Assembly (NCBI GenBank): GCA_964482735.1
Contig: CAYZYV010000002.1
Span: forward strand, 86,061 to 150,060
DNA length: 64,000 bases
Direction: 5' to 3'
Source: an uncultured Candidatus Saccharibacteria bacterium
Lineage (GTDB): Bacteria; Patescibacteriota; Minisyncoccia; Phycocordibacterales; UBA9973
The notes beneath the pieces are model-generated. The model did not search any database. It was not told the origin of the DNA and saw only the letters and a program-made list of their open reading frames with translations. Position numbers and translations under genes: made by a program. Positions within the stretch are counted from its first letter, which is position 1; every line of letters begins with the position of its first letter. Positions 30,500-55,978 of the stretch are shown here, piece by piece.

Positions 30500-30576
30500 T
30501 TTTATCTTTAGATTAAATATGATAATATGTAAATATAATTTAATATTTGAGTAGCCTAAACCAATAAGTAATTATT

Positions 30577-30690
30577 GGCATGGTGAATAAGTCCCCGTAA
30601 AAGATAAAGAACTCCTAGTCAGAGTTTGCCTTTTACGGGGCTGTATCTGGAAACGGATACAGGTGGGTTAAAATCCACCATGCTGGCTGG
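30577..30690 (+). ncRNA. Multi-stem (cloverleaf-like) structured RNA candidate upstream of the 30724 ORF
   Basis: Outer stem GGCATGGTG/CACCATGC. Inner stems CCCCGTAAAAG/CTTTTACGGGG (enclosing the small hairpin AACTC-CTAGTCA-GAGTT), CTGTATC-TGGAAAC-GATACAG and GTGGG-TTAAAAT-CCAC. Followed by GGGAGC-TTTTT-GCTTCC. Confidence 0.3.
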
Positions 30691-31775: not shown

Positions 31776-32648
31776 CTAAAGACTTATATTGCCATTCTCG
31801 TCACATTTATAATTTTTGAAAAAATCTAGAACTCCTTTTTGTAAAGGATTTTTTGCCAATTCATTATAAACAAGTACAATGTCTTCACCTAAAATTTCTG
31901 AATGATTTAGTACGGTATTTTTTGTGTACATAACGGCACTTATACCCTCATGTTCTTTTTCAAGGAAAAAAGTCATAGGAACCTTACTTCCATTTTTCTT
32001 TAATATAAAAGGAATTGTGCTCCATCCATATTTTAATGGTCCACCATTTATCGGGCGAGATATAGTTTGATAACCTACAGCAAATACCGCCCTAAGTATC
32101 AACGGGATTGAAGCATCAACATGATCAAGAGCACCTCTAGATACAGCTATAACAAATTGATCAGAATCTTTTACTATTCCATCTTCTATATACTTTTCAT
32201 ACTTTTCTTTTAAAACAGATGCAATTCGTATAAGCATTTCATCACTTGGAACATTTTGAACAATACCAGTAATTGTTTCTGGAACCCTATCTTCTCCTTT
32301 CCCTTTTTCACAAGCAACACACTCAATCCAAATTTTTTTACCTTCATATTCAATTAGAATATCAGGACCTATGTCTTTAGATGAAAAAGTAATTCCTTTT
32401 TCCAATAATACACAACCAAGATACATTTCCCATGTTCTTTGATGAAACTTTTTTTTAATTTCTTTTAAGAAATTACTGTCAGCATATTGGTAATATTTTT
32501 GATAAAGAGAATCAAATTTATTTTTCCTTTCTTTTATTGATCCGCTTGTAACATAATAACTATCATAATTGGAATATTTTTTTATTAATGTCTGAAGTTC
32601 TGTTTCGGTTGTAATAAGTGGAAAATTATCTGTAAACAAATATTTCAT
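31776..32648 (-). CDS. Hypothetical 290-aa protein, third gene of the higB-higA/immA operon; weak PD-(D/E)xK-like signature
   Basis: Starts 2 nt after the upstream gene's stop. The segment GPDILIEYEGKKIWIECVACEK is the only nuclease-like motif; the rest is unrecognised. Confidence 0.35.
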   Translation of the reverse strand: MKYLFTDNFPLITTETELQTLIKKYSNYDSYYVTSGSIKERKNKFDSLYQKYYQYADSNFLKEIKKKFHQRTWEMYLGCVLLEKGITFSSKDIGPDILIEYEGKKIWIECVACEKGKGEDRVPETITGIVQNVPSDEMLIRIASVLKEKYEKYIEDGIVKDSDQFVIAVSRGALDHVDASIPLILRAVFAVGYQTISRPINGGPLKYGWSTIPFILKKNGSKVPMTFFLEKEHEGISAVMYTKNTVLNHSEILGEDIVLVYNELAKNPLQKGVLDFFKNYKCDENGNISL

Positions 32649-32650
32649 TT

Positions 32651-33712
32651 TTATGCAAATTTTAACCTAGGTCTTAAACTAGATACCATATTCCATGGAA
32701 CTTTTTTATCATGACACAACCTACCAGCAACGATGCCAGGATGAACTCCTAAACTTTTTGCAAAATTAATCACGCCATCTCTTGTTAATGGCTTCTTTAA
32801 GAAATCTATATAGTTTTCTTCTGGTATTAATTTATCACTGGCAAAATCATCGGCTTCTTTTTCCTTCTCTTGAACAATAGATAATTCTTTATTATCAAAC
32901 TCAATAAATTTCTCTTTTTTACCATGTAATATTAAATGTCCTAATTCATGATATAAATTAAACCAAAAAATATCTGCCCATGAGTTATAAATACTCAGCT
33001 GTATTACAGGATTATTATTAATCCACCTAACAGCCCCACTTACTCCACTACCTGAAAAATGAGGAATATATACTAAAGCTACTCCGGCTTGATTTAAAAT
33101 TTTAATTACTTCTTTTGAAAAATCTTCCGGTTTTTTTACTGATAGTAATTTAATTTGTGATAAAGATTCTTTTAGCTTTATTTCGGAATATTCCGGAAGA
33201 ACATTTTTTTTAGATTCCAACTCACCACACCTAAGCCATGTTGCAATAACTTCACTTTTAATATTTAGATTATTTTTTTTACGATAAGCAACAGTTTCTG
33301 TTGTCTGAACATATGACAAAGAATTAACCCCAAAAAATCTCCAGAGATTTTCAACTTTTTTATAGTTATTTGTGGTTTTTTCAACAAATCCTCGTTTTGC
33401 AAGTTCTGCATAAGGGAATTTAGAAATCATTTCTGTTTCTTTTTTAATTATTGAAATTCTTTCAATTCTAGCTCTAGTTTCTTGATATTTTTTTTCAAGA
33501 TTAACCCAAAAGGAAGCTGATCCACCTAAAGCATTTTCTAAAAGTAGTGCAGTCTCAACAGTTATGGAAGCTTCTCCATTTATTATTTGACTTATATGTT
33601 TCTCTGTGAGACCTGTTCTCTCGCTGAGACTTTTTTGAGTCATTCCTTCACGATCTAGGGCTTTTGAAATGGTATACCCGGGGTGTATTGCTTTGTTTGG
33701 ATTATAAACCAT
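32651..33712 (-). CDS. HigA-type XRE-family HTH antitoxin fused to ImmA/IrrE-family HEXXH metallopeptidase domain
   Basis: N-terminal IHPGYTISKALDREGMTQKSLSERTGLTEKHISQIINGEASITVETALLLENALGGSASFWVNLE is a HigA-like HTH. C-terminal YHELGHLILHG is the HEXXH of COG2856-type peptidases. Confidence 0.7.
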   Translation of the reverse strand: MVYNPNKAIHPGYTISKALDREGMTQKSLSERTGLTEKHISQIINGEASITVETALLLENALGGSASFWVNLEKKYQETRARIERISIIKKETEMISKFPYAELAKRGFVEKTTNNYKKVENLWRFFGVNSLSYVQTTETVAYRKKNNLNIKSEVIATWLRCGELESKKNVLPEYSEIKLKESLSQIKLLSVKKPEDFSKEVIKILNQAGVALVYIPHFSGSGVSGAVRWINNNPVIQLSIYNSWADIFWFNLYHELGHLILHGKKEKFIEFDNKELSIVQEKEKEADDFASDKLIPEENYIDFLKKPLTRDGVINFAKSLGVHPGIVAGRLCHDKKVPWNMVSSLRPRLKFA

Positions 33713-33722
33713 AAATTTATAT

Positions 33723-34085
33723 TTAATGATAATTGATAAATATTTCTATTATTAAAATAAATGTTATACTTTTATAATTATCTATTCTAAAATTTGGGTC
33801 TCCATCATGATTCGGTTTAAATATAATTCTATATTTATTATCAACATCAACAGCAAAACATCCTTTATATTCTCCCTTTAATGGGTGGGGGCGATAACTA
33901 TGTGGAACATCAGATAATGCATCAGCTGAAATAAGTATGTTTAATGTGTTCAGAATATCCGTAGCATAATCAATTCCTTTTTTGTTATATCTTTTACATA
34001 AGGCATTGTAATCATTAACAAGGGCCTCGTGTTTTGGATTATCAAATACTATTCTCATATTAACAAATATTACTAAAAACTGCAA
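33723..34085 (-). CDS. higB: HigB-like (RelE/ParE superfamily, plasmid-maintenance killer) toxin
   Basis: C-terminal HPLKGEYKGCFAVDVDNKYRIIF...YH matches the HigB killer-protein pattern. Directly upstream of the HigA-like gene. Confidence 0.6.
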   Translation of the reverse strand: MQFLVIFVNMRIVFDNPKHEALVNDYNALCKRYNKKGIDYATDILNTLNILISADALSDVPHSYRPHPLKGEYKGCFAVDVDNKYRIIFKPNHDGDPNFRIDNYKSITFILIIEIFINYH

Positions 34086-34196
34086 CTTTTTTATTTACCA
34101 TTTTGGTAAATAAAAAAACTAATAAATCGTTTATTTTCTGATGTTTATTATGGTATTTAATTATATATAATAAGTTATCCACAAGTATTATTTAAA

Positions 34197-35885
34197 TTAT
34201 TTCTTAAGCCTTCCTTTTGAGCCAATTTTATTATCGTCCACAATATCTCGGAGTTGATTGATTAGAACCATAATTTCTTCAATTTTTTTTACAATGCGTT
34301 TTTGTTCAGCAAGAGGTGGGAGTGGTATATTAGCAGATTTAACTTTCTCTGCATTAAGATTTTTTACAACTGCACCAGAAACTATATCTGCGAATTGTTG
34401 AAAAAATACGTTTGAGGATAACATATAATAAAAAAAATCTCTAAAGGTTTCTTTGTAATAGGGTTTTAAAACCAGCCAGCCGTCGTGAATACATCCATCA
34501 ATCTTTAATATATATGGTCTCCCAAAACTCATTGAGTTAGTAAGAAGTAAATCTCCAACATGTACCATTCTTGTCTTTTTTAAACCAGCTTTAATAATTT
34601 TTTCTTTAGTAGAATATATATATTTTCCTCCTTGTTCTGTGTCTCCAATCTTTATCCAATTCAATCCGTCATCATTATTCGTTATATAACTTTCAATTGG
34701 ACGTGGTGAGCCACCTCTTTCAACTGAAAATACATCACCGAGCTTAACCCATTTCCATGATTTTGGAATTTCAAAAAGTAAATCTTTATTATCCATAAAA
34801 ATTGACTCCTTATTTTTCTTTTTTTTATTATCATTTATTTCTATTCTTTTCTTTTCAATATTAATAAAAGATAATAGATCTTCCGCAGTTCCTTCTTTTT
34901 TATCCTGCGGAACTAATTTACCAGAAACAGCAAGGCTTAAAATTGCATCTTCTAACTCTTTAATATCTTCAGGCGTTTTTACCAATTCGGCTAATTGTTT
35001 TAGCGCAATTTTTGTTTCTCCTTTTCCGAGAGATTGCATGGCGCTACGAGTAAGACGGGAGCGAATTTCATCACGTTCATTTTTCCTAATTTCAAGCTTG
35101 TCTAATTGTTTTATTACTTCTTCAATTTTTTTTACAATGCGATTTTGTTCTTTGTATGGAGGCAAAGGAATAACAAAAGATTTTATATCGTCCATCGATA
35201 TATTATCATTTGTAGAATTTTTCTTTTTATTAATAAAATCTTGTATATAAGAAGAAAGGATTACATAATTAATATATTCCGAAATAATATTATCGTTAAT
35301 CTTTATAGTTGCAACTCTTTGATTTGTTACCATTTTTTCATCTATATTTCTTACAAAATAACTCTTACCAACTGTACCACCAGTCATACATAAAAGTATA
35401 TTTTCATTATTTATTTCGAATTGAGCTAAACTCGAATAATAATCATGACGTACTATTTTATTATTTTTAAATCCATTTTCGTCAAAATCAGATATCTTAA
35501 TTACTCTAACTCCAGTATTTTTAAAATTTTGGCTTTTAAAGGCATATCCACCATTAATGTCAGATAAATTATTTAATCTTGTCCATTTCCAAGATATAGG
35601 AATTTCAAATGGGATTTCTTCTTCATTTATATTTAAAAGTTTTTTTTCTGTATCATTCTTTAAACATTCTGATTTAATTTTATTAAATAATTCTTCACCA
35701 GTTCCTTCTTTTTTATCCTGTGGAACTAATTTACCAGACATAGCCAAAGTAAGTATCGCTTTACGAAGGCGATTTATTCCATCTGGTACTTCTATGAAAT
35801 CATCAATATTATTAGCAATAGTTTTTATATCATTTAGTATCATGGTGAGAAAGCGCTTCGGTGATAACTGTGCGAATTTGCTCAA
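34197..35885 (-). CDS. hsdS: Type I restriction-modification specificity subunit HsdS (two target-recognition domains)
   Basis: Duplicated conserved regions AILTLAMSGKLVPQDKKEGT / AILSLAVSGKLVPQDKKEGT and IPLPPYKEQNRIVKKIEE / IPLPPLAEQKRIVKKIEE flank two variable domains. The annotated start overlaps hsdM; the real start is probably an internal Met. Confidence 0.8.
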   Translation of the reverse strand: MSKFAQLSPKRFLTMILNDIKTIANNIDDFIEVPDGINRLRKAILTLAMSGKLVPQDKKEGTGEELFNKIKSECLKNDTEKKLLNINEEEIPFEIPISWKWTRLNNLSDINGGYAFKSQNFKNTGVRVIKISDFDENGFKNNKIVRHDYYSSLAQFEINNENILLCMTGGTVGKSYFVRNIDEKMVTNQRVATIKINDNIISEYINYVILSSYIQDFINKKKNSTNDNISMDDIKSFVIPLPPYKEQNRIVKKIEEVIKQLDKLEIRKNERDEIRSRLTRSAMQSLGKGETKIALKQLAELVKTPEDIKELEDAILSLAVSGKLVPQDKKEGTAEDLLSFINIEKKRIEINDNKKKKNKESIFMDNKDLLFEIPKSWKWVKLGDVFSVERGGSPRPIESYITNNDDGLNWIKIGDTEQGGKYIYSTKEKIIKAGLKKTRMVHVGDLLLTNSMSFGRPYILKIDGCIHDGWLVLKPYYKETFRDFFYYMLSSNVFFQQFADIVSGAVVKNLNAEKVKSANIPLPPLAEQKRIVKKIEEIMVLINQLRDIVDDNKIGSKGRLKK

Positions 35886-37275
35886 GCACTTTTTTCACCT
35901 CTTGCTGTTTATTATGGTATGTTTCAAGTAATTCCTCTGGTGATTCAAGAACATCAACAGGAGTTCGAGGGTTCTTTATATCCAAGTTATAATTACGCTT
36001 GATAATTTCGTCTATAGAAACTTTCCACGCTTGATCATTTTCTTCACGATTATTCCACCATTTTGTCTCTTTTTCAAACTCATCAAATTTAATAGGGTTA
36101 GTCATCGAATATGCCTTTTGCCCTTCGGGGAGTGGATGCTCATAATACCAAATCTCCTTGGTTGGTTCACCTTTTGTAAAGAAAAGTAAGTTTGTTGCAA
36201 TAGTTGTATATGGGGCAAAAACACTCTTTGGTAAACGAACAATGGTGTGAAGATTACATTCTTCTAATAACTGTTTTTTGAGGGTTGTTTTCATACCTTC
36301 ACCAAACAAGGTTCCGTCGGGAAGAACCATACCTGCACGGCCATGTTTTTTAAGTAAACGCATAATAAGAACAAGAAAAAGATCTGCTGTTTCTCTTGTT
36401 TGAAATTCTTTTGGAAAATTAGATTCAATACCTGGCTCTTCAGTACCACCGAATGGAGGATTTGTAATAATACAATCTACCTTATCTGAATCTGTGTAAT
36501 CACGTATAGGTTTTTCTAGGGTGTTTCCACGGCGCATTGTCACAGGTTCTTCGATCCCGTGAAGCATCATATTGGTTATTAGAAGCATAAATGGAAGCGG
36601 TTTCTTTTCAACGCCATAGATACTCTGTTGAATTTTTTGTTCATCTTTAACTGATTTAACTTGTTTACGCATATGCTCAAGAGCATGTACCAAGAATCCT
36701 CCAGTGCCTACAGCTGGATCCATAACAGATTCACCAACTTTTGGATCTACCATTTCTACGACAAATTGAGTTACAGCACGAGGAGTATACATTTCTCCGA
36801 AATTACCAGCACTTTGTAAACTTTTTAAAAGACGTTCATATATGTCGTTAAAAGCATGACGATCTTTTGATGCATTGAAATCTATTTCATTTATTTTATT
36901 TATAACCTGTTTAAGTAAAGTACCTTTGCGCATAAAGTTATAAACATCCTTAAATGCCATACGTGTAAGGTCGGTTCTTTTGTTTCCTGATTCAGGAAGA
37001 TCTCTTAACCCAGGAAGTAAATCATTATTTACAAAATCAATGAGCTTATCTCCGGTCATCCCATCGAGAGGACCTGCCCATGTACGCCACTGATATTTTT
37101 TAGGAAGTGTAGGGATAAATTTATCTTTACGTATTTCAAGAGCTTTATCTTCATCATCTAAAATTTTTAGATAGATAAGCCAAACCATCTGAGACAAACG
37201 TGTAGCATCACCATCTACACCAACATCTTGGCGCATTATGTCTTGAATTGCTTTTATTGTTGATGGACTAAACAT
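35830..37275 (-). CDS. hsdM: Type I R-M DNA methyltransferase subunit HsdM (N6-adenine)
   Basis: Motif I DPAVGTGGFL and motif IV NPPFG. Confidence 0.9.
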   Translation of the reverse strand: MFSPSTIKAIQDIMRQDVGVDGDATRLSQMVWLIYLKILDDEDKALEIRKDKFIPTLPKKYQWRTWAGPLDGMTGDKLIDFVNNDLLPGLRDLPESGNKRTDLTRMAFKDVYNFMRKGTLLKQVINKINEIDFNASKDRHAFNDIYERLLKSLQSAGNFGEMYTPRAVTQFVVEMVDPKVGESVMDPAVGTGGFLVHALEHMRKQVKSVKDEQKIQQSIYGVEKKPLPFMLLITNMMLHGIEEPVTMRRGNTLEKPIRDYTDSDKVDCIITNPPFGGTEEPGIESNFPKEFQTRETADLFLVLIMRLLKKHGRAGMVLPDGTLFGEGMKTTLKKQLLEECNLHTIVRLPKSVFAPYTTIATNLLFFTKGEPTKEIWYYEHPLPEGQKAYSMTNPIKFDEFEKETKWWNNREENDQAWKVSIDEIIKRNYNLDIKNPRTPVDVLESPEELLETYHNKQQEVKKVLEQIRTVITEALSHHDTK

Positions 37276-37276
37276 A

Positions 37277-39646
37277 TTATTTGGTATACATTACATCTAA
37301 TAATTCATCGACTGTTTTAAAATATCCTTCCTTGCCACCAAATAATGAAACAAGTTCATAGTCGGTTCCAATAGAACGAAATGGTTCCAGTGTGAGAATT
37401 CTAACATTCTCAATATCTTTCAGGGTTACATCTGCATATTTTTGGAGTAAAGCCTCAAGAACTTCTCTTGCTTTTCCACTATATTTATCTAAATAATTTG
37501 AACGACGAACAGCTTCTATCCTTTCGTTCTTTTTCATCATTTTCTTATCATAACCAACGTGCATTATCAGATCAAAAAGATCAAACTCTGCACCAACTTG
37601 TTTTTGAAGTTCTTCAAGTGGAATTCCACTTGCGTCTATCTGATCAATGATTGCTTGGCGACGATCTGCTGATTGCCATGCTGTAAAGAAACTTTCAAGT
37701 GTTGGGTAATGCGTAAGAATATTCTTACGTGTAAAATCAGTTAATGACTGTGTTAGAAGTTTTCCATCAGGTCCAAGATATTGAACTTGTTCTTTTACTA
37801 CAGCATAAGGCACTCCACTTAAAGTAAATACTGGAGGTCTATCAATAACATCTAGAGATGACCCTTTTGAAAGAATAACGTCAACGAGTTTATCTTCATC
37901 CTCTTTTTCTTCAATAGTTAGTTCTGGTGGATCTTTTTCTGTTAATTCCTCTTCAATATTATCGTTTTCTCTTACTTCAAAAACACGTTCAGCAACTCCA
38001 TCAAAACCAGGATCGGCAAATAATTTTGTAACACCCTGAAAATCAATAATAGTAAACCACATTTTACCCTTATCTTCTCTTACACGAGTTCCACGACCTA
38101 TTATTTGTTTAAATTCAGTCATACTTTCTATTGGTTTATCAAGAACTATCAGTTTGCATGTTTGGGCATCAACACCGGTAGATAAAAGTTGTGATGTTGT
38201 AACTAATGTTGGATATTTTTCTTCAGGATCAATAAAACGATCCAGCTGGTTCTTTCCTTCTTCATCATCTCCCGTAATACGCATAACATAACGTGTATCT
38301 TCTAGTGATTTATCTCCTGAGGCATTTACTAATGCAGAACGCATACGTTCTGCATGTGCAGTTGTTCGGCAAAAGACAATGGTCTTAGCATAAGGATCAT
38401 TTATTGCATTAATATATTCAACTATTTTTTCAGCAACAATTTTGTCTCGCTGAGGAAAAATAACTGATTTGTTTATATCACGAAGTTCATAAATACGCTC
38501 TTCAACAAGGTTCCCATTGTCATCTATTGTACCAGGAGCAGGACGCCATCCGGTTATATCATTATCCAAGAGAACCCTTAATACTTTATATGGTGCTAAA
38601 AACCCATCATCTATACCTTGTTTTAATGAGTATGTATAAATAGACTCACCAAAATAATGAGTGGTGCTCGTGTCAGTTGTTTCTTTTGGTGTAGCTGTAA
38701 GTCCAAGGTGTGTAGCACTTGTAAAGTGATCAAGTATTTCATGCCATTCGCTATCTTCTGAGGCACTACCTCTATGACACTCATCTACTATTATCAAATC
38801 AAAGAAATCTTTTGGAAGTTTTTTGAATAATTTATCATTCTCTTCCTTTCCACTCATTGCTTGATATAAACCTAAAAATACCTCATATGCCATGAGTGAT
38901 CCTATATCATTAAAATCTTGACGAGAAATTTTTGTTAGAGCATTTCCAAAGTGTTTAAGATCGTTTACACGTGCTTGATCAACTAAAATATTTCTATCAG
39001 CAAGAAAGAGTATTCTTTTGGCGTTCCCAGATTTCCAAAGACGCCACATGATTTGTCCAGCAGTATAAGTTTTTCCTGTACCAGTTGCCATAACTAAGAG
39101 TAATCGCTTTTCACCTCGTGCAATGGCTTCAACAGAACGATCAATAGCTATTCTCTGAAAATATCGTGGTGATTTATTTGGATCATCTGAATAAAAAGGT
39201 GTTTCAATTGCAGTACGTAGTGTTGCAGATTCTCCTTTCCATTTTAAATAACGTTGGTAAAGTTCTTCTGGAGAAGGAAAATTATCTAAATTAAGAGAAG
39301 ATTCAGTCACTTCAGATATTCCGGTTCTATCATGAAAAAGATAACCATTTCCATTTGAAGAGAAAACAAAAGGCACATCAAGATTTTCTGCATAAACTAA
39401 AGCTTGTTGCATTCCTATACCAAGATCCTTATTTGAATGTTTTGCTTCTATAATTGCCAATGGTAAGTTAGGTCTATATTCAAGGAGAAAATCTACTTTC
39501 TTTTTTTCTCCACGCTTTGTAGTTTTTCCACTAACATGAATACGTCCCATTGTGTATGGATACTCCTCACGAATTTGTTGGTCTGTCCATCCAGAATTTA
39601 TTATTGATGGCCTTATTAATCTATTGCGTGTTTCTTCTTCGTTCAT
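37277..39646 (-). CDS. hsdR: Type I R-M restriction subunit HsdR (helicase-nuclease)
   Basis: N-terminal HsdR_N nuclease region, Walker A ATGTGKT, DECHRG (DEAD-box type) and helicase C motifs. 789 aa. Confidence 0.9.
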   Translation of the reverse strand: MNEEETRNRLIRPSIINSGWTDQQIREEYPYTMGRIHVSGKTTKRGEKKKVDFLLEYRPNLPLAIIEAKHSNKDLGIGMQQALVYAENLDVPFVFSSNGNGYLFHDRTGISEVTESSLNLDNFPSPEELYQRYLKWKGESATLRTAIETPFYSDDPNKSPRYFQRIAIDRSVEAIARGEKRLLLVMATGTGKTYTAGQIMWRLWKSGNAKRILFLADRNILVDQARVNDLKHFGNALTKISRQDFNDIGSLMAYEVFLGLYQAMSGKEENDKLFKKLPKDFFDLIIVDECHRGSASEDSEWHEILDHFTSATHLGLTATPKETTDTSTTHYFGESIYTYSLKQGIDDGFLAPYKVLRVLLDNDITGWRPAPGTIDDNGNLVEERIYELRDINKSVIFPQRDKIVAEKIVEYINAINDPYAKTIVFCRTTAHAERMRSALVNASGDKSLEDTRYVMRITGDDEEGKNQLDRFIDPEEKYPTLVTTSQLLSTGVDAQTCKLIVLDKPIESMTEFKQIIGRGTRVREDKGKMWFTIIDFQGVTKLFADPGFDGVAERVFEVRENDNIEEELTEKDPPELTIEEKEDEDKLVDVILSKGSSLDVIDRPPVFTLSGVPYAVVKEQVQYLGPDGKLLTQSLTDFTRKNILTHYPTLESFFTAWQSADRRQAIIDQIDASGIPLEELQKQVGAEFDLFDLIMHVGYDKKMMKKNERIEAVRRSNYLDKYSGKAREVLEALLQKYADVTLKDIENVRILTLEPFRSIGTDYELVSLFGGKEGYFKTVDELLDVMYTK

Positions 39647-39650
39647 AAAA

Positions 39651-40496
39651 TTATTTTCTTACATTTTCATCTAATGTTTTACCTTTATCATCTTTCCAAG
39701 CAGTCCAGCCATTGCAAGACCTACCAGCTATACAATCAGCAGCAGCACTTGGACTTTTGAAAACATAATCATTTTCAAAAATAAATGACTCCTCATTGAA
39801 TTTTTTTAGTATACCTTCGTTTTCCAGCTTCTTTCTTAATAAAGATCCACTATGATCTATAAAAGCAGGAGTTTCTTTAATTCTAGATAAAGATCCTTTA
39901 TATACAATAAATTCTCCGCTTTCTAATAATGAGCCTTTCCCATTCCCTGCTTTATTTGTAGCATCTGAAAATTCATATATTTTTTTATCTGAAATAGATT
40001 CAGTAATAACACTAAATAATTGATATCCTAATGTTTCTAGAATAAATTGAACTTTTTCAAAAAAATCTTCTACTGAAATTTTATCAATGTCTGATAGTGA
40101 ATTCTCTGGTGGTTGCACCTTATTTTGTATTACCATTCGATTTACTTTGTGCGCCAAAACAGTAGCTTTATGTTCTAAATATTTAACATGAGCTTTATTT
40201 AAAACACCGGTAAAAATTGCGGCTGTATCCCAGAAATCTTTATTTGAATCGTGATTAGTAATTCTATTATAGAAATTTTCAGATTCTCCTATGTAGGCAA
40301 GATCATCACCTGATTCTTCATCAAAACCGAACAAAACATAAAGACCTGGCTTATCTATATCAGGAAAATCTTTTAATTCTTTTAAATTTTGACGTGGCAA
40401 CAAAAAACATTTGCCAGACCATCCAGGAACTTCTATTATTTTCATTCCATTAGGGTTTCCTCCTGGAACAAGAATTTGTATGGCTTTTGATTTCAT
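39651..40496 (-). CDS. GIY-YIG nuclease family protein (DUF4357-like C-terminus), R-M associated
   Basis: GLYVLF...AYIGESENFYNRITNH is a GIY-YIG core. The gene is immediately downstream of hsdR. Confidence 0.55.
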   Translation of the reverse strand: MKSKAIQILVPGGNPNGMKIIEVPGWSGKCFLLPRQNLKELKDFPDIDKPGLYVLFGFDEESGDDLAYIGESENFYNRITNHDSNKDFWDTAAIFTGVLNKAHVKYLEHKATVLAHKVNRMVIQNKVQPPENSLSDIDKISVEDFFEKVQFILETLGYQLFSVITESISDKKIYEFSDATNKAGNGKGSLLESGEFIVYKGSLSRIKETPAFIDHSGSLLRKKLENEGILKKFNEESFIFENDYVFKSPSAAADCIAGRSCNGWTAWKDDKGKTLDENVRK

Positions 40497-40900: not shown

Positions 40901-42712
40901 ATGTTCGTTTCCAGGACCTACATAAGGAACAACGAACATGTTATGAATGAAAACATAAAAAATAAAAAAGAGTCTGCTATTTATTATCAACAAATGGGTT
41001 TAAGTATCATTCCAACTGGTAGAAATAAAAAACCACTAATTGATTCGTGGAAACAATATGAAAGTATACGCCCAACAATCGAAGAAATTACTACATGGTG
41101 GGATAAATGGCCAGAAGCAAATCCTGCACTTGTTACAGGTAAGGTATCAGGAGTTGTCGCTCTTGATTTAGATAAAAAACATAATAGAACATCAAAAGAA
41201 TTTCAAATACCTCCGACAGCCTCAGCAATATCTGGAAATGGAGGTGAGCATTTCTTTTTCAAATATCCATTAAATGGTCCAGTTAAGACGTCATCTGCTA
41301 TAAGCGGATATGGCGTTGACTCTCGAGGGGATGGAGGATACATACTTCTCTCACCATCTGAAAATGAAAATGGAGGCAAATATACATGGATTGTTCCTTT
41401 TGAGTCAAAAGAAGATTTGGCTGATATGCCTGATTGGTTATTAAGTCTTACTACTGAAAAGGAAAATACTAAGAAGTGGTTAGATGGAATGAATGGTGTA
41501 TCAGAAGGTTCTAGAAATGACACAGCGACCTCAATGGCAGGAAAGATAATTAGTTCGACTAGTCCTGAATTATTAGAAAGTATTGGATGGGACCAATTCA
41601 AGATTTGGAATGATAGAAACATTCCACCTCTTCCAGAAAAGGAATTACGAAATGTTTGGGAAAGCATAAAAAGAAAACATGTAAATAAAGAAAAAACTAA
41701 TTTTGATGAACATCAATTTGTTTCTCTTGGAGATTTACTAAATGAACCTGAGGAAACAATAAGTTGGGTAATAGAAGATATGTTGCCTGCTGGTGGTTTT
41801 TCTATTATGGTAGCAAAACCAAAAGTTGGAAAATCAACGCTCGTAAGACAATTAGCACTGTGCGTTGCTCGCGGAGAATCCTTCCTAGAAAGAAAAACAG
41901 AAAAAGGTGGTGTTTTATATGTGGCATTGGAAGAAAAACGAGGAGAAGTTAAAAACCATTTTAAACTTCTTGGAGCTGACGGCACAGAAGATTTAGGCGT
42001 ATATGTTGGATCTGCTCCTGGAGAAGCATATACATGGCTTGAAAATGAAGTAAAAAAGAAACACCCAATATTGATAATTATTGATACTCTTTTCCGATTC
42101 GCTCGCGTTGCAGATGTTAGTGATTATGCAAAAGTTACAAATGCTCTAGATCCACTCTTAAAATTAGCTAGAGAAAATTCCACCCATTTAATGTGTCTTC
42201 ATCATGCAAGAAAAATGCCTGGGGATGGAGCTGATGCTACTCTTGGGTCTACTGCCATTTTTGGAACTGTAGATACCGCCATGTTACTTAAGAGAAATAA
42301 AGACGGTAAAAGAACCCTCGAAACTCAACAAAGATATGGAAGAGATATGGAAGAGACTGTATTGATGTTTAACGTTGATTTAAAAACAATAACTCTGGGT
42401 AGTTTAAAAGAAGAAGAGGATGAAAAGAAAATCGAGGAGTTAATTATAGATTTATTGAAATCATCAAAAGAACCAATTGATGAAAAAACCATTCGAGATG
42501 AAATTGAAGGAAAAACTACACTAAAAAGTATTGCACTTAGATCATTATTTCAAGGTGGAAAAATAACAAGAACCGGTTTAGGTAGAAAAGGAGATCCTTA
42601 TCTTTATTCTTGTTCCCTTGTTCCCGATATATGTGAGGAACAAGAAAACAAGAAAGAGATTGGTCCTAAAGATATCCAATTAAAAGATAACTTGGAGAAT
42701 TTTACCCTTTAG
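40901..42712 (+). CDS. Bifunctional DNA primase-polymerase (Prim-Pol) N-domain fused to AAA_25/RepA-like ATPase
   Basis: N-terminal YYQQMGLSIIPTGRNKKPLIDSWKQY...ALDLD is a Prim-Pol domain. Central Walker A KPKVGKST and the DTLFRFAR Walker B region indicate a RecA-like ATPase. Confidence 0.7.
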   Translation: MFVSRTYIRNNEHVMNENIKNKKESAIYYQQMGLSIIPTGRNKKPLIDSWKQYESIRPTIEEITTWWDKWPEANPALVTGKVSGVVALDLDKKHNRTSKEFQIPPTASAISGNGGEHFFFKYPLNGPVKTSSAISGYGVDSRGDGGYILLSPSENENGGKYTWIVPFESKEDLADMPDWLLSLTTEKENTKKWLDGMNGVSEGSRNDTATSMAGKIISSTSPELLESIGWDQFKIWNDRNIPPLPEKELRNVWESIKRKHVNKEKTNFDEHQFVSLGDLLNEPEETISWVIEDMLPAGGFSIMVAKPKVGKSTLVRQLALCVARGESFLERKTEKGGVLYVALEEKRGEVKNHFKLLGADGTEDLGVYVGSAPGEAYTWLENEVKKKHPILIIIDTLFRFARVADVSDYAKVTNALDPLLKLARENSTHLMCLHHARKMPGDGADATLGSTAIFGTVDTAMLLKRNKDGKRTLETQQRYGRDMEETVLMFNVDLKTITLGSLKEEEDEKKIEELIIDLLKSSKEPIDEKTIRDEIEGKTTLKSIALRSLFQGGKITRTGLGRKGDPYLYSCSLVPDICEEQENKKEIGPKDIQLKDNLENFTL

Positions 42713-43007: not shown

Positions 43008-44570
43008 ATGAAAAATAAAATAAATAAAGCTGTCATAATTTGTCGTGTTTCAAGTAAAGAGCAAGAAGATACTGGCTACTCTTTGGATGCACAAGAAAAG
43101 TTGCTTCAGACATATGCTGACGAAAGAAATATAAATGTAATAAGAGTATATAAAATTTCAGAATCAGCCAGTGGAAAAATGGTAAGAAAAAAGTTCTACG
43201 AAATTTTACAGTATATTAAAAAGAATAATGCTAATTTAATATTAGCAGAAAAGATTGATCGTCTAACTAGAAATCTAAAAGATGCTTCAATAATAAATGA
43301 TTGGGTCCAGGAAAATAAAAACAATGAAGTTCATTTTGTTAAAGAAAACTTTATTGTCAGTCAGAATACAAAAGCTCATGAAAATCTTGTCTGGGATATG
43401 AAAGTTGCTATTGCTAGATTTTACACAAACAATCTCTCGGAAGAAGTAAAAAAGGGTCAGAAAGAAAAAATTTCTCAAGGGTGGTTACCAACAAAACCTC
43501 CTCTTGGTTATGAGACAGTTGGAGAAAAAGGACATAAGGTTCACATTATAGACAAAGAACGAGCTCCTTATATTAAGAAAATGTTTGAACTTTATTCTTC
43601 CGGAAATTATTCAACTCATATGATGGTTGAGTTAATGTATAAAGAAGGATTAAGAAACCGATCAGGTAAAAAGGTTGGGAAATCTAGAATGTATGACCTA
43701 CTTTCAGATCCATTTTACTGTGGAAAAATTAAGTGGAAAGAACAAATCTTTAATGGAAAACAAGAACCTATTATAACAAAAGACTTATATGATTTGGTCC
43801 AGGAGAAATTAAATCGTAAATTTAAGAGCCCTCAATATCAAAAACATAACCCTGTTTTTAAGGCAAAAATGGAGTGTGATGAATGTAAAGGAACTGTTAC
43901 TTGGGAGACTCACAAGGGTCATTGGTATGGACATTGTAACCATTATAAAACTTGTAGCCAGAAAGTTTGGAAAAGACAGGAGGATGTTGAAAAGATACTT
44001 TTCCCTTTATTTGATAACGTAGCCCCAAAAACAAATAAGGTATTAAAAGTATTAGAAAAAGCATTAAAGGAGAATCACGAAGATGAGATAAAATATAACA
44101 ACAATGTTCTAAGTGGTATAAATAAAAAAATAGAAACAGCGCAAAGAAGAATTGAGGCTATCTATGAAGATAAAATTGATGGGAAAATTTCACCAGAATT
44201 TTACAATAGAAAATTGGCAGAATATACAAAAGAAAAAGAAGACGCCATGGAATCTCTTAAAAAATTAAACGAAGGAAACACTAAATATTACGAGGCTGGG
44301 TTCGCAATACACGAGCTTGCTTCAAGAGCTTCTGAGATTTATAAGAGCCCTAAAGCCACAGTAGAAGATAAAAGATTACTTTTAAGTAAAATATTTTCGA
44401 ACCTTTCATTAAATGCTGATGAAATAAAGCCAAATTACACATTAGCCTTCGAATTTCTCAGAGAATGGATACCTATACTAAATAATAATTTCGAACCAGA
44501 AAAAGATGTTGCTAATAAAGGAAAAGAGAGCACTTTCGTGCTCCCTCGTCCTACTTTGCTCCGTGGGTAG
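43008..44570 (+). CDS. Large serine recombinase (resolvase/invertase N-domain, recombinase domain, Zn ribbon)
   Basis: N-terminal AVIICRVSSKEQ catalytic-Ser region. Recombinase domain, then CDECKG...HCNHYKTC zinc ribbon and a coiled coil. The last 12 nt overlap tRNA-Asn. Confidence 0.85.
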   Translation: MKNKINKAVIICRVSSKEQEDTGYSLDAQEKLLQTYADERNINVIRVYKISESASGKMVRKKFYEILQYIKKNNANLILAEKIDRLTRNLKDASIINDWVQENKNNEVHFVKENFIVSQNTKAHENLVWDMKVAIARFYTNNLSEEVKKGQKEKISQGWLPTKPPLGYETVGEKGHKVHIIDKERAPYIKKMFELYSSGNYSTHMMVELMYKEGLRNRSGKKVGKSRMYDLLSDPFYCGKIKWKEQIFNGKQEPIITKDLYDLVQEKLNRKFKSPQYQKHNPVFKAKMECDECKGTVTWETHKGHWYGHCNHYKTCSQKVWKRQEDVEKILFPLFDNVAPKTNKVLKVLEKALKENHEDEIKYNNNVLSGINKKIETAQRRIEAIYEDKIDGKISPEFYNRKLAEYTKEKEDAMESLKKLNEGNTKYYEAGFAIHELASRASEIYKSPKATVEDKRLLLSKIFSNLSLNADEIKPNYTLAFEFLREWIPILNNNFEPEKDVANKGKESTFVLPRPTLLRG

Positions 44571-44630
44571 GGATCGAACCTACGACCAATCGCTTAACAG
44601 GCGACCGCTCTACCGCTGAGCTACCACGGA
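44559..44630 (-). tRNA. tRNA-Asn (anticodon GTT)
   Basis: Acceptor TCCGTGG/CCACGGA, anticodon stem GTCGC/GCGAT with loop CTGTTAA, T-arm GTAGG-TTCGATC-CCTAC. Confidence 0.85.
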
Positions 44631-53600: not shown

Positions 53601-53970
53601 TTTATATGGTTTTGTGTTTATAAGCCGAATTCTGTTCTCCGACTTTTAGTCGGAGCGGTAAACATTTATCTAGACCTAAAGTTACCCTCAGGCTCAAGCG
53701 ATTCAGACTCCGACCAAGGTCGGAGAATACGATCTTGCACACTCGTAAGGATTTAGCCGTTTCATTTTCTATGTTTCCATAGAACTCACCCCTCACTTAC
53801 GTTTAGGGTGCTACACTCTTTCGAGTTAATAGCGTCTCTGCTCGCACCTCTATGATTACTCACGATGGGTGTTACCCACTACAACTGCCTGACGTAGTCA
53901 GACTGTGTGTTCGGACTTTCCTCACTCCGACATAAATCGAAGCGCGTTTACCTAACACAAAACCATAAAC
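53600..53970 (-). ncRNA. rnpB: RNase P RNA (bacterial type A-like)
   Basis: On the minus strand: P1 pairing TATGGTTTTGTGTT (5') with AACACAAAACCATA (3'). P4 5' strand GAGGAAAGTCCGAAC. The 3' P4 strand ACAGAATTCGGCTTA matches the universal ACAGAAnnCGGCUUA. Length about 370 nt. Confidence 0.75.

Positions 53971-54436: not shown

Positions 54437-55978
<1,542 letters not shown>

Follow-up and report, generated by a model that had tools for sequence, protein, structure and literature searches.

In a 64,000-nucleotide stretch of contig CAYZYV010000002.1 (hereafter the window), three closely spaced genes on the minus strand follow a type I restriction-modification (R-M) operon. They encode a HigB-family toxin (gene 1), a HigA-type helix-turn-helix (HTH) domain fused to an ImmA/IrrE (M78) metallopeptidase (gene 2) and a 290-aa protein with a PD-(D/E)xK-like core (gene 3); coordinates are given in Table 1. 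A preliminary description of this DNA had treated the three genes as one operon and knew of no described system of this composition. We find that the locus is two separate, known kinds of mobile defence module lying side by side, and not a new three-gene system. In the reading that we prefer, with a probability of about 0.7, the HigB/HTH-M78 pair and gene 3 are two independent mobile defence-type modules that stand in tandem at the 3' end of the R-M operon, within an integrative element. This reading was adopted because the pair is kept as a unit, because gene 3 occurs independently of the pair, and because PD-T7-1 and PD-T7-5, the validated defence systems to which gene 3 is related, are single-gene systems.

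The gene layout of the preliminary description was recovered exactly, with three open reading frames (ORFs) on the minus strand at 33723-34085, 32651-33712 and 31776-32648 and gaps of 10 nt between genes 1 and 2 and of 2 nt between genes 2 and 3. The grouping of the three genes did not withstand the co-occurrence analysis that the preliminary description had itself named as a test. This analysis was run in both directions on 25 genomic loci carrying a gene-3 homologue (neighbourhood of +/-6 kb) and on 80 metagenomic loci carrying an HTH-M78 gene (L026-L105). The pair was present beside a gene-3 homologue in 1 of the 25 loci, a sibling contig (L001) that is 99% identical to the window; neither a toxin nor an HTH-M78 gene was found within +/-6 kb of the gene-3 homologue in the other 24. 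In the reverse direction, no gene-3 homologue was found among the 80 HTH-M78 loci (0/80), while a toxin homologue was detectable directly 5' of the HTH-M78 gene in 54 of them and most of the others had an ORF of approximately 110 aa in this position. Genes located 5' of gene-3 homologues were often only 2-20 nt away and were mutually unrelated, including prfA-like, methyltransferase, HNH-like and Leu/Phe-tRNA-protein transferase-like genes. The only recurrent neighbour family around gene-3 homologues was that of HsdR-like helicases (4 loci).

Similarly, no third gene was conserved with the pair. The two ORFs 3' of the pair (105 ORFs in total) fell into 89 Pfam families, none of them dominant, and Beta_protein, the family of the third component of the defence system PD-lambda-2, was absent from the recurrent downstream Pfam families of the pair loci. 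A co-directional gene followed the pair within 40 nt in 24 of 56 distinct loci, compared with 146 of 435 background gene pairs (Fisher p=0.18), and on a Gloeocapsopsis plasmid the annotated two-gene pair is followed by an insertion sequence element, with no third gene. Short gaps were considered as proof of an operon-level functional unit and rejected, as gaps of this size are typical of the compact genome of the window (where 1-5 nt are common), of gene-3 homologues and the unrelated genes before them, and of background gene pairs. The juxtaposition of gene 3 and the pair is local, and the short gap between them reflects the compact genome. Behind some pairs, defence-type genes were seen at close distance, namely NERD (L026), DUF2130 (L058, L059 and L068) and an OLD/AriA-like ATPase (L074); multiubiquitin, ThiF and prokaryotic-E2 genes made up four, three and two of the ORFs after pairs, probably in L036 and L048.

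Several observations weigh against two independent modules, some of them made on PD-lambda-2 of E. coli ECOR42, a validated abortive-infection system composed of a HigB-like gene, a HigA-HTH/peptidase gene and a third gene (Vassallo et al. 2022; PMC9519451). Defence by PD-lambda-2 requires the third gene; moreover, its component B is toxic when expressed alone, component A is not, and the HigB-like A rescues from the toxicity of B (PMC9519451). The roles of toxin and antitoxin are therefore unsettled in this architecture, and two genes alone may be too few for defence. In the window, genes 2 and 3 are too close together (2 nt) for a separate promoter to fit between them, and no terminator-like site was found there either, so that gene 3 is probably co-transcribed with the pair in this genome, under the same operator. 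Finally, Acinetobacter plasmids place a distant gene-3 relative beside an RmrA-like HTH-M78 gene. The gap between genes 2 and 3, the need of PD-lambda-2 for its third gene and the Acinetobacter arrangement speak for a functional, lineage-specific trio, i.e. a PD-lambda-2-like system with a swapped third part, in which, in line with the model of the preliminary description, the HigB/HigA-M78 switch would control the expression, and perhaps the activity, of a nuclease effector. The many pairs closely trailed by defence-like genes (NERD, DUF2130, OLD/AriA-like ATPase, multiubiquitin/E1/E2) point in the same direction, as does the precedent of CapP/CapH, where modules of an M78 peptidase and an HTH protein regulate downstream immune operons. 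We nevertheless consider such a trio unlikely: it was seen only in the window and its near-identical sibling, gene-3 homologues occur in many settings unrelated to one another, some of them behind housekeeping genes, close downstream spacing is not enriched and short gaps are normal in this genome, and gene 3 is unrelated to PD-Lambda-2_C/Beta_protein.

A more general proposal, to which we give rather little credence, is that the HigB/HigA-M78 pair is a portable, operator-controlled and protease-triggered switch for whichever effector lands behind it. If this were true, the effector would be a PD-T7-like nuclease here and a NERD protein, a DUF2130 protein, an OLD-type ATPase or a ubiquitin-like system elsewhere; the window would hold a three-component system of the PD-lambda-2 type in which the effector has been exchanged, and the family as a whole would be the toxin-coupled counterpart of the CapH/CapP regulators.

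The composition of the pair itself agreed with the preliminary description, which had called a HigB-like toxin and a HigA-HTH domain fused to an ImmA/IrrE HEXXH peptidase, and all motifs quoted there were found (HPLKGEYKG...RIIF...YH; HPGYTISKAL...SLSERTGLTEKHISQIINGE; YHELGHLILHG; GPD...IECVACEKG). The combination is not novel. RelE or PIN toxins beside Xre-COG2856 fusions were described in 2009 (Makarova) as probable three-component toxin-antitoxin (TA) systems with a protease-cleaved repressor (PMC2701414), PD-lambda-2 contains such a fusion next to a HigB-like gene, and in RosmerTA an ImmA-type antitoxin is paired with variable toxins in anti-phage defence (PMC10440598).

As a single sequence, the toxin matched Pfam (YafQ_toxin and HigB-like_toxin, PF05015) and NCBIfam models below their curated cut-offs. 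A profile of 42 members of the toxin family matched Proteus vulgaris HigB in the PDB (4mct_B, E=2.8e-6). Residues His54, Arg73, Asp90, Tyr91 and His92 are critical in HigB (PMC5027501); their counterparts in the window protein are H58, R77, position 109, Y110 and H111. H58, R77 and H111 were invariant among the 42 family members and Y110 was present in 39, while position 109 was occupied by Asp in 28 and by Asn in 14, the window protein being one of the latter. The start of the toxin gene is the ATG at 34058, since 40 or more homologous loci begin at the aligned ATG and encode proteins of 108-114 aa. The TTG at 34085, used in a mechanical ORF call that yielded 120 aa, was ruled out by this alignment.

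For the protein encoded by gene 2, the HTH domain (residues ~7-78) and the M78 peptidase domain (residues ~200-340) were both supported by matches above cut-off: HTH_3 (E=1.9e-11) and Peptidase_M78 (PF06114; E=2.2e-8, 34.4 bits for a cut-off of 22) in Pfam, and the HigA equivalog TIGR02607 in NCBIfam (54.2 bits for a cut-off of 47.7). Among the PADLOC models, PD-Lambda-2_B was matched nearly end to end (E=4.6e-39; residues 9-337 on profile positions 58-378 of 402). The models for RmrA (of RosmerTA) and CapP gave weaker matches to the peptidase part alone, those for RmrA covering residues ~200-330 with E-values of 2.3e-16 to 1e-3; an RmrA-like protein of Acinetobacter, for comparison, scores E=3e-67 with RmrA. 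Profile matches in the PDB were obtained with HigA for the HTH domain (4mcx_A, E=2e-8) and with CapP (7t5t_A, E=5.5e-3). Residues H255, E256, H259, H263 and E284 were invariant in 30 homologues, the first three and E284 representing the HEXXH...E zinc site. Scans of viral contigs yielded just four full-length, distant relatives of the HTH-M78 protein and none of the 290-aa protein, and there is therefore no sign that either module is phage-borne here.

A spacer of 139 nt separates hsdS from the toxin ATG and holds a perfect palindrome, TTTACC-AAAAT-GGTAAA, which is present in a single copy within the window. With at most one mismatch allowed, 39 of 45 distinct homologous loci carry TTACC-N5-GGTAA before the toxin gene, in nearly every case centred 42-45 nt from the ATG (extremes 34-50 nt); the background determined from the remainder of the same loci was 0.0017 per 110 nt. 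A palindrome at a fixed distance is what one would expect of an autoregulated repressor of the HigA type, and we regard it as a precisely placed candidate operator, conserved across phyla, to which the HTH domain is predicted to bind. Directly 3' of the palindrome follows a sigma-70-like element, and elements of this type (TTGNNN-N16-18-TANNAT) were found in the same placement in 33 of the 45 loci; a second promoter-like element lies just 5' of the operator in 29. The downstream element may give rise to an antitoxin-only transcript, as RNA starting from it could not encode HigB from the ATG at 34058.

The placement of the operator also bears on the possibility that the main role of the HTH-M78 protein is to regulate the transcription of defence genes nearby, i.e. 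as a fused CapH/CapP- or ImmR/ImmA-like regulator serving the island or the element, with HigB as an accessory modulator and not a killer. The toxicity of PD-lambda-2 component B alone and its rescue by A would fit such a role, as would the CapP matches of gene 2 and the position within an integrative island equipped with a recombinase and a primase. We consider it very unlikely, however, since the palindrome precedes the genes of the pair itself at a constant distance, as typical of autoregulation, and since the two genes move together between unrelated contexts. Moreover, the catalytic residues of HigB are invariant, which argues that RNase activity is under selection.

Gene 3 had been described as lacking a recognisable family apart from a stretch resembling PD-(D/E)xK. 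This holds for Pfam and NCBIfam, which returned only noise, and does not hold for PADLOC, where gene 3 matched PD-T7-1 (E=3.3e-17; profile positions 145-345 of 452) and PD-T7-5 (E=1e-14; profile positions 43-234 of 346). Both are single-gene 'nuclease' defence systems with weak PD-(D/E)xK signals that were found in the same E. coli screen as PD-lambda-2 (Vassallo et al. 2022). The aligned part comprises residues 51-247 of gene 3 and 44-55% of the profiles, and we classify gene 3 as a core-sharing relative of PD-T7-1 and PD-T7-5, not as a clear member. The structure prediction that the preliminary description had proposed yielded a confident fold (predicted local distance difference test score, pLDDT, of 93.7); its fold matches were weak and overwhelmingly restriction-endonuclease-like, and the family profile matched nothing among PDB sequences below E=0.2. 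Residues E74, P95, D96, E109, G116 and R141 are invariant in the family, and E74, D96 and E109 sit at the alpha-beta-beta positions of the predicted core. The motif of gene 3 reads PD96...E109-x-V and lacks, at that position, the classical Lys of (D/E)xK, which is replaced by V, I or C in the family.

The gene-3 family is large and comprises 3,495 cluster representatives (50% identity, E<=1e-3), mostly of ~290-310 aa and most of them single-stretch proteins. Named close homologues belong mostly to Patescibacteria (labelled Paceibacterota, Nomurabacteria or Parcubacteria), and distant homologues annotated as 'hypothetical protein' were found on proteobacterial and cyanobacterial plasmids. No conserved immunity or partner gene was found beside gene-3 homologues in the 25 loci, and in having no recurrent partner gene 3 resembles the single-gene systems PD-T7-1 and PD-T7-5. 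That gene 3 is neither a nuclease nor a defence gene, its PD...E motif being coincidental in a structurally unrelated protein, is hardly credible in view of the significant profile links to two validated nuclease-type defence proteins, the invariant E74, D96 and E109 at core positions, the mostly restriction-endonuclease-like fold matches and the R-M association of 4 of the 25 loci.

Some individual loci deserve mention. In L007 (1959-9989), a gene-3 homologue of 49% identity lies inside an apparent type I R-M operon, with the order HsdM-like gene, three more ORFs, gene-3 homologue and, after 2 nt, a gene for an HsdR-like protein of 1026 aa. In L002 (4872-5990), L010 (5165-5983) and L013 (5168-5986), the gene just 5' of the gene-3 homologue opens with Cys-x2-Cys...His and appears HNH-type nuclease-like by eye; L010 and L013 are 84.5% identical to one another. 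On the Acinetobacter pittii plasmid pAP43-OXA58-NDM1 (L107; NZ_CP043053.1, 863-4951), a gene-3 relative of 354 aa (25.6% identity) is divergent from the gene for the RmrA-like HTH-M78 protein (RmrA E=3e-67), which is followed by a small ORF and, beyond it, a CBASS-type SMODS cyclase (E=2.8e-166). Other Acinetobacter plasmids gave a match with identical coverage, identity and E-value, among 16 Acinetobacter records matched. The arrangement may represent a CBASS under the control of a protease/HTH protein, with the nuclease-like protein as its effector.

Based on the reading of two independent modules, we propose the following mechanism. Genes 1 and 2 would form a toxin-first HigBA-type module, acting as a type II TA or abortive-infection pair. 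HigB, to judge from its conserved catalytic residues, would be a ribosome-dependent endonuclease that cuts mRNA in the A-site. The HigA-like HTH part of the fusion would neutralise HigB and, as homology and the conserved operator suggest, repress the operon via TTTACC-N5-GGTAAA. The M78 peptidase would be the trigger: by analogy with ImmA, IrrE and CapP, a phage or DNA-damage cue would lead to cleavage of the HTH/antitoxin part, in cis or in trans, which would free HigB and derepress the promoter. Single-stranded DNA is known to activate the CapP and PprI peptidases. That a protease-fused repressor or antitoxin serves as a switch, as the preliminary description had suggested, can reasonably be inferred from the precedents of ImmA/ImmR, IrrE/DdrO and CapP/CapH. 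Gene 3 would constitute the second module, a solitary metal-dependent nuclease of the PD-(D/E)xK type that acts alone in defence like PD-T7-1 and PD-T7-5; it appears to have been inserted 2 nt behind the first module, and its expression from the promoter of the pair or by read-through from the R-M operon is probable.

The surroundings of the two modules are summarized in Table 1. As the preliminary description had stated, the modules lie in a defence island: hsdR, hsdM and hsdS are directly 5' of the toxin gene on the shared strand, the R-M operon extending over 34197..40496 if the DUF4357/RAMA gene is included. The G+C content is 0.28-0.30 at 31-36 kb versus ~0.33-0.36 in the surroundings. 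This reduced G+C content, the primase-helicase gene and the serine recombinase gene abutting a tRNA gene suggest that the block of R-M, TA and nuclease genes is cargo of an integrative element. Type I R-M genes were found just 5' of the HigB/HTH-M78 pair in approximately one tenth of the homologous loci. Together with the HsdR-like genes near gene-3 homologues, they make type I R-M operons seem a common landing site for both modules.

Table 1. Features of the window in the order modules, control elements, neighbouring genes and RNAs.
Feature	Coordinates	Strand	Basis or remark
Gene 1, HigB-family toxin (PF05015-type, RelE superfamily), 111 aa + stop	33723..34058	-	Homologue alignment, family profile
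Gene 2, HigA-type Xre HTH + ImmA/IrrE (M78, COG2856) metallopeptidase fusion, 353 aa	32651..33712	-	Pfam, NCBIfam, PADLOC
Gene 3, 290 aa, PD-(D/E)xK-like core, PD-T7-1/PD-T7-5-related	31776..32648	-	PADLOC, conserved residues
Perfect palindrome TTTACC-AAAAT-GGTAAA, candidate operator	34094..34110	.	Centre 44 nt 5' of toxin ATG
Predicted target DNA for HTH domain (residues 1-95): TTTACCAAAATGGTAAA			
Sigma-70-like element TTGCAG-N17-TAATAT	34057..34085	-	Directly 3' of operator; final two bases = AT of toxin ATG
hsdS, context, outside modules	34197-35885	-	Pfam Methylase_S
hsdM, context, outside modules	35830-37275	-	Pfam N6_Mtase, HsdM_N
hsdR, context, outside modules	37277-39646	-	Pfam ResIII, EcoEI_R_C, HSDR_N
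DUF4357/RAMA gene, context, outside modules	39651-40496	-	Pfam DUF4357; PADLOC PDC-S14
Prim-Pol/AAA_25 primase-helicase	40901-42712		
Large serine recombinase	43008-44570		End overlaps tRNA gene 44559-44630
LOOT RNA (Rfam RF03000)	30553-30679	+	86 bits vs gathering score 46.4
RNase P RNA	53605-53963	-	Next after 16S rRNA gene
16S rRNA gene	54437-55978	-	

The sibling contig L001 (JAGVVH010000423.1) was deposited as 'Bacteroidetes bacterium'. Its hsdR, hsdM, toxin, HTH-M78 and nuclease genes are 97-100% identical to those of the window, whereas the hsdS genes (34197-35885 in the window, 2896-4452 in L001) share 46% identity and encode proteins of 562 and 518 aa, respectively; the specificity subunit has therefore been swapped between near-identical genomes. 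The DUF4357/RAMA protein (281 aa), encoded just upstream of hsdR, matches the PADLOC candidate family PDC-S14 (E=1.4e-82), and in L024 (7802-8641) a homologue of 35% identity adjoins an HsdR-like gene and a gene-3 homologue. The LOOT RNA lies ~1.1 kb past the end of gene 3, amid small ORFs without family matches. The rRNA genes of the window are unlinked, the 16S rRNA gene being followed by RNase P RNA and not by a 23S rRNA gene, with a G+C content of ~0.33. Together with the Paceibacterota, Nomurabacteria and Parcubacteria labels of the closest homologues, these traits point to a Patescibacteria (CPR) genome, in contrast to the label under which L001 was deposited.

The locus adds a Patescibacteria-type example to the known pairs of HigB and HTH-peptidase fusion, and a version with a Proteus-type HigB and without a dedicated third gene. 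It also provides three leads, namely the candidate operator, the tendency of both the HigB/HTH-M78 pair and the PD-T7-like nuclease family to settle within or beside type I R-M operons, and a Pfam-less nuclease-like family of ~3,500 clusters at 50% identity that is related to two validated single-gene defence systems.

Compared with known systems, the locus resembles PD-lambda-2 in gene order, with a small 'HigB' gene of the RelE superfamily, a gene for an Xre/HigA HTH with a C-terminal ImmA/IrrE peptidase and a third gene in one operon, and gene 2 corresponds to component B over nearly its entire length. The other two components differ. PD-lambda-2 A belongs to PF09907, whereas the toxin of the window is of the PF05015/Proteus HigB type and has no match to PD-Lambda-2_A at E<=1; PD-lambda-2 C is a PF14350 Beta_protein that is conserved with A and B, whereas gene 3 is PD-(D/E)xK-like, has no match to PF14350 or PD-Lambda-2_C and is not co-conserved with the pair. 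With RosmerTA and the systems described by Makarova in 2009, the pair shares an antitoxin made of HTH and M78/ImmA domains and a swappable toxin, in modules that are mobile and enriched in defence contexts. It differs from RosmerTA in that the RmrA models match only part of gene 2, and far more weakly than PD-Lambda-2_B, and in that the validated RmrT is membrane-depolarising and unrelated to known families, while the toxin of the window is a classical HigB.

HigBA of the Proteus vulgaris plasmid Rts1 has the same toxin-first order and homologous HigB and HigA domains; its upstream palindromic operator has a candidate counterpart in the window, and its catalytic set of His, Arg and Tyr-His is kept in the toxin of the window, where the equivalent of Asp90 is Asn; the antitoxin of the window carries an extra ~270 aa that include the metallopeptidase. 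ImmA/ImmR, IrrE(PprI)/DdrO and CapP/CapH combine an M78 HEXXH peptidase with an Xre-family repressor, whose inactivation by the peptidase switches on a mobile-element, repair or immune operon, and their HEXXH...E zinc site is kept in gene 2. These systems encode protease and repressor separately and have no toxin partner, whereas the version in the window is fused and paired with HigB. Gene 3, finally, is shorter than PD-T7-1 and PD-T7-5 (290 aa versus profiles of 452 and 346 positions) and belongs to a separate, mostly patescibacterial family. It shares with both systems its core and its occurrence as a stand-alone gene, and the weak PD-(D/E)xK signals that HHpred gave for PD-T7-5 (its residues ~58-108) lie within the part of the profile that aligns to gene 3.

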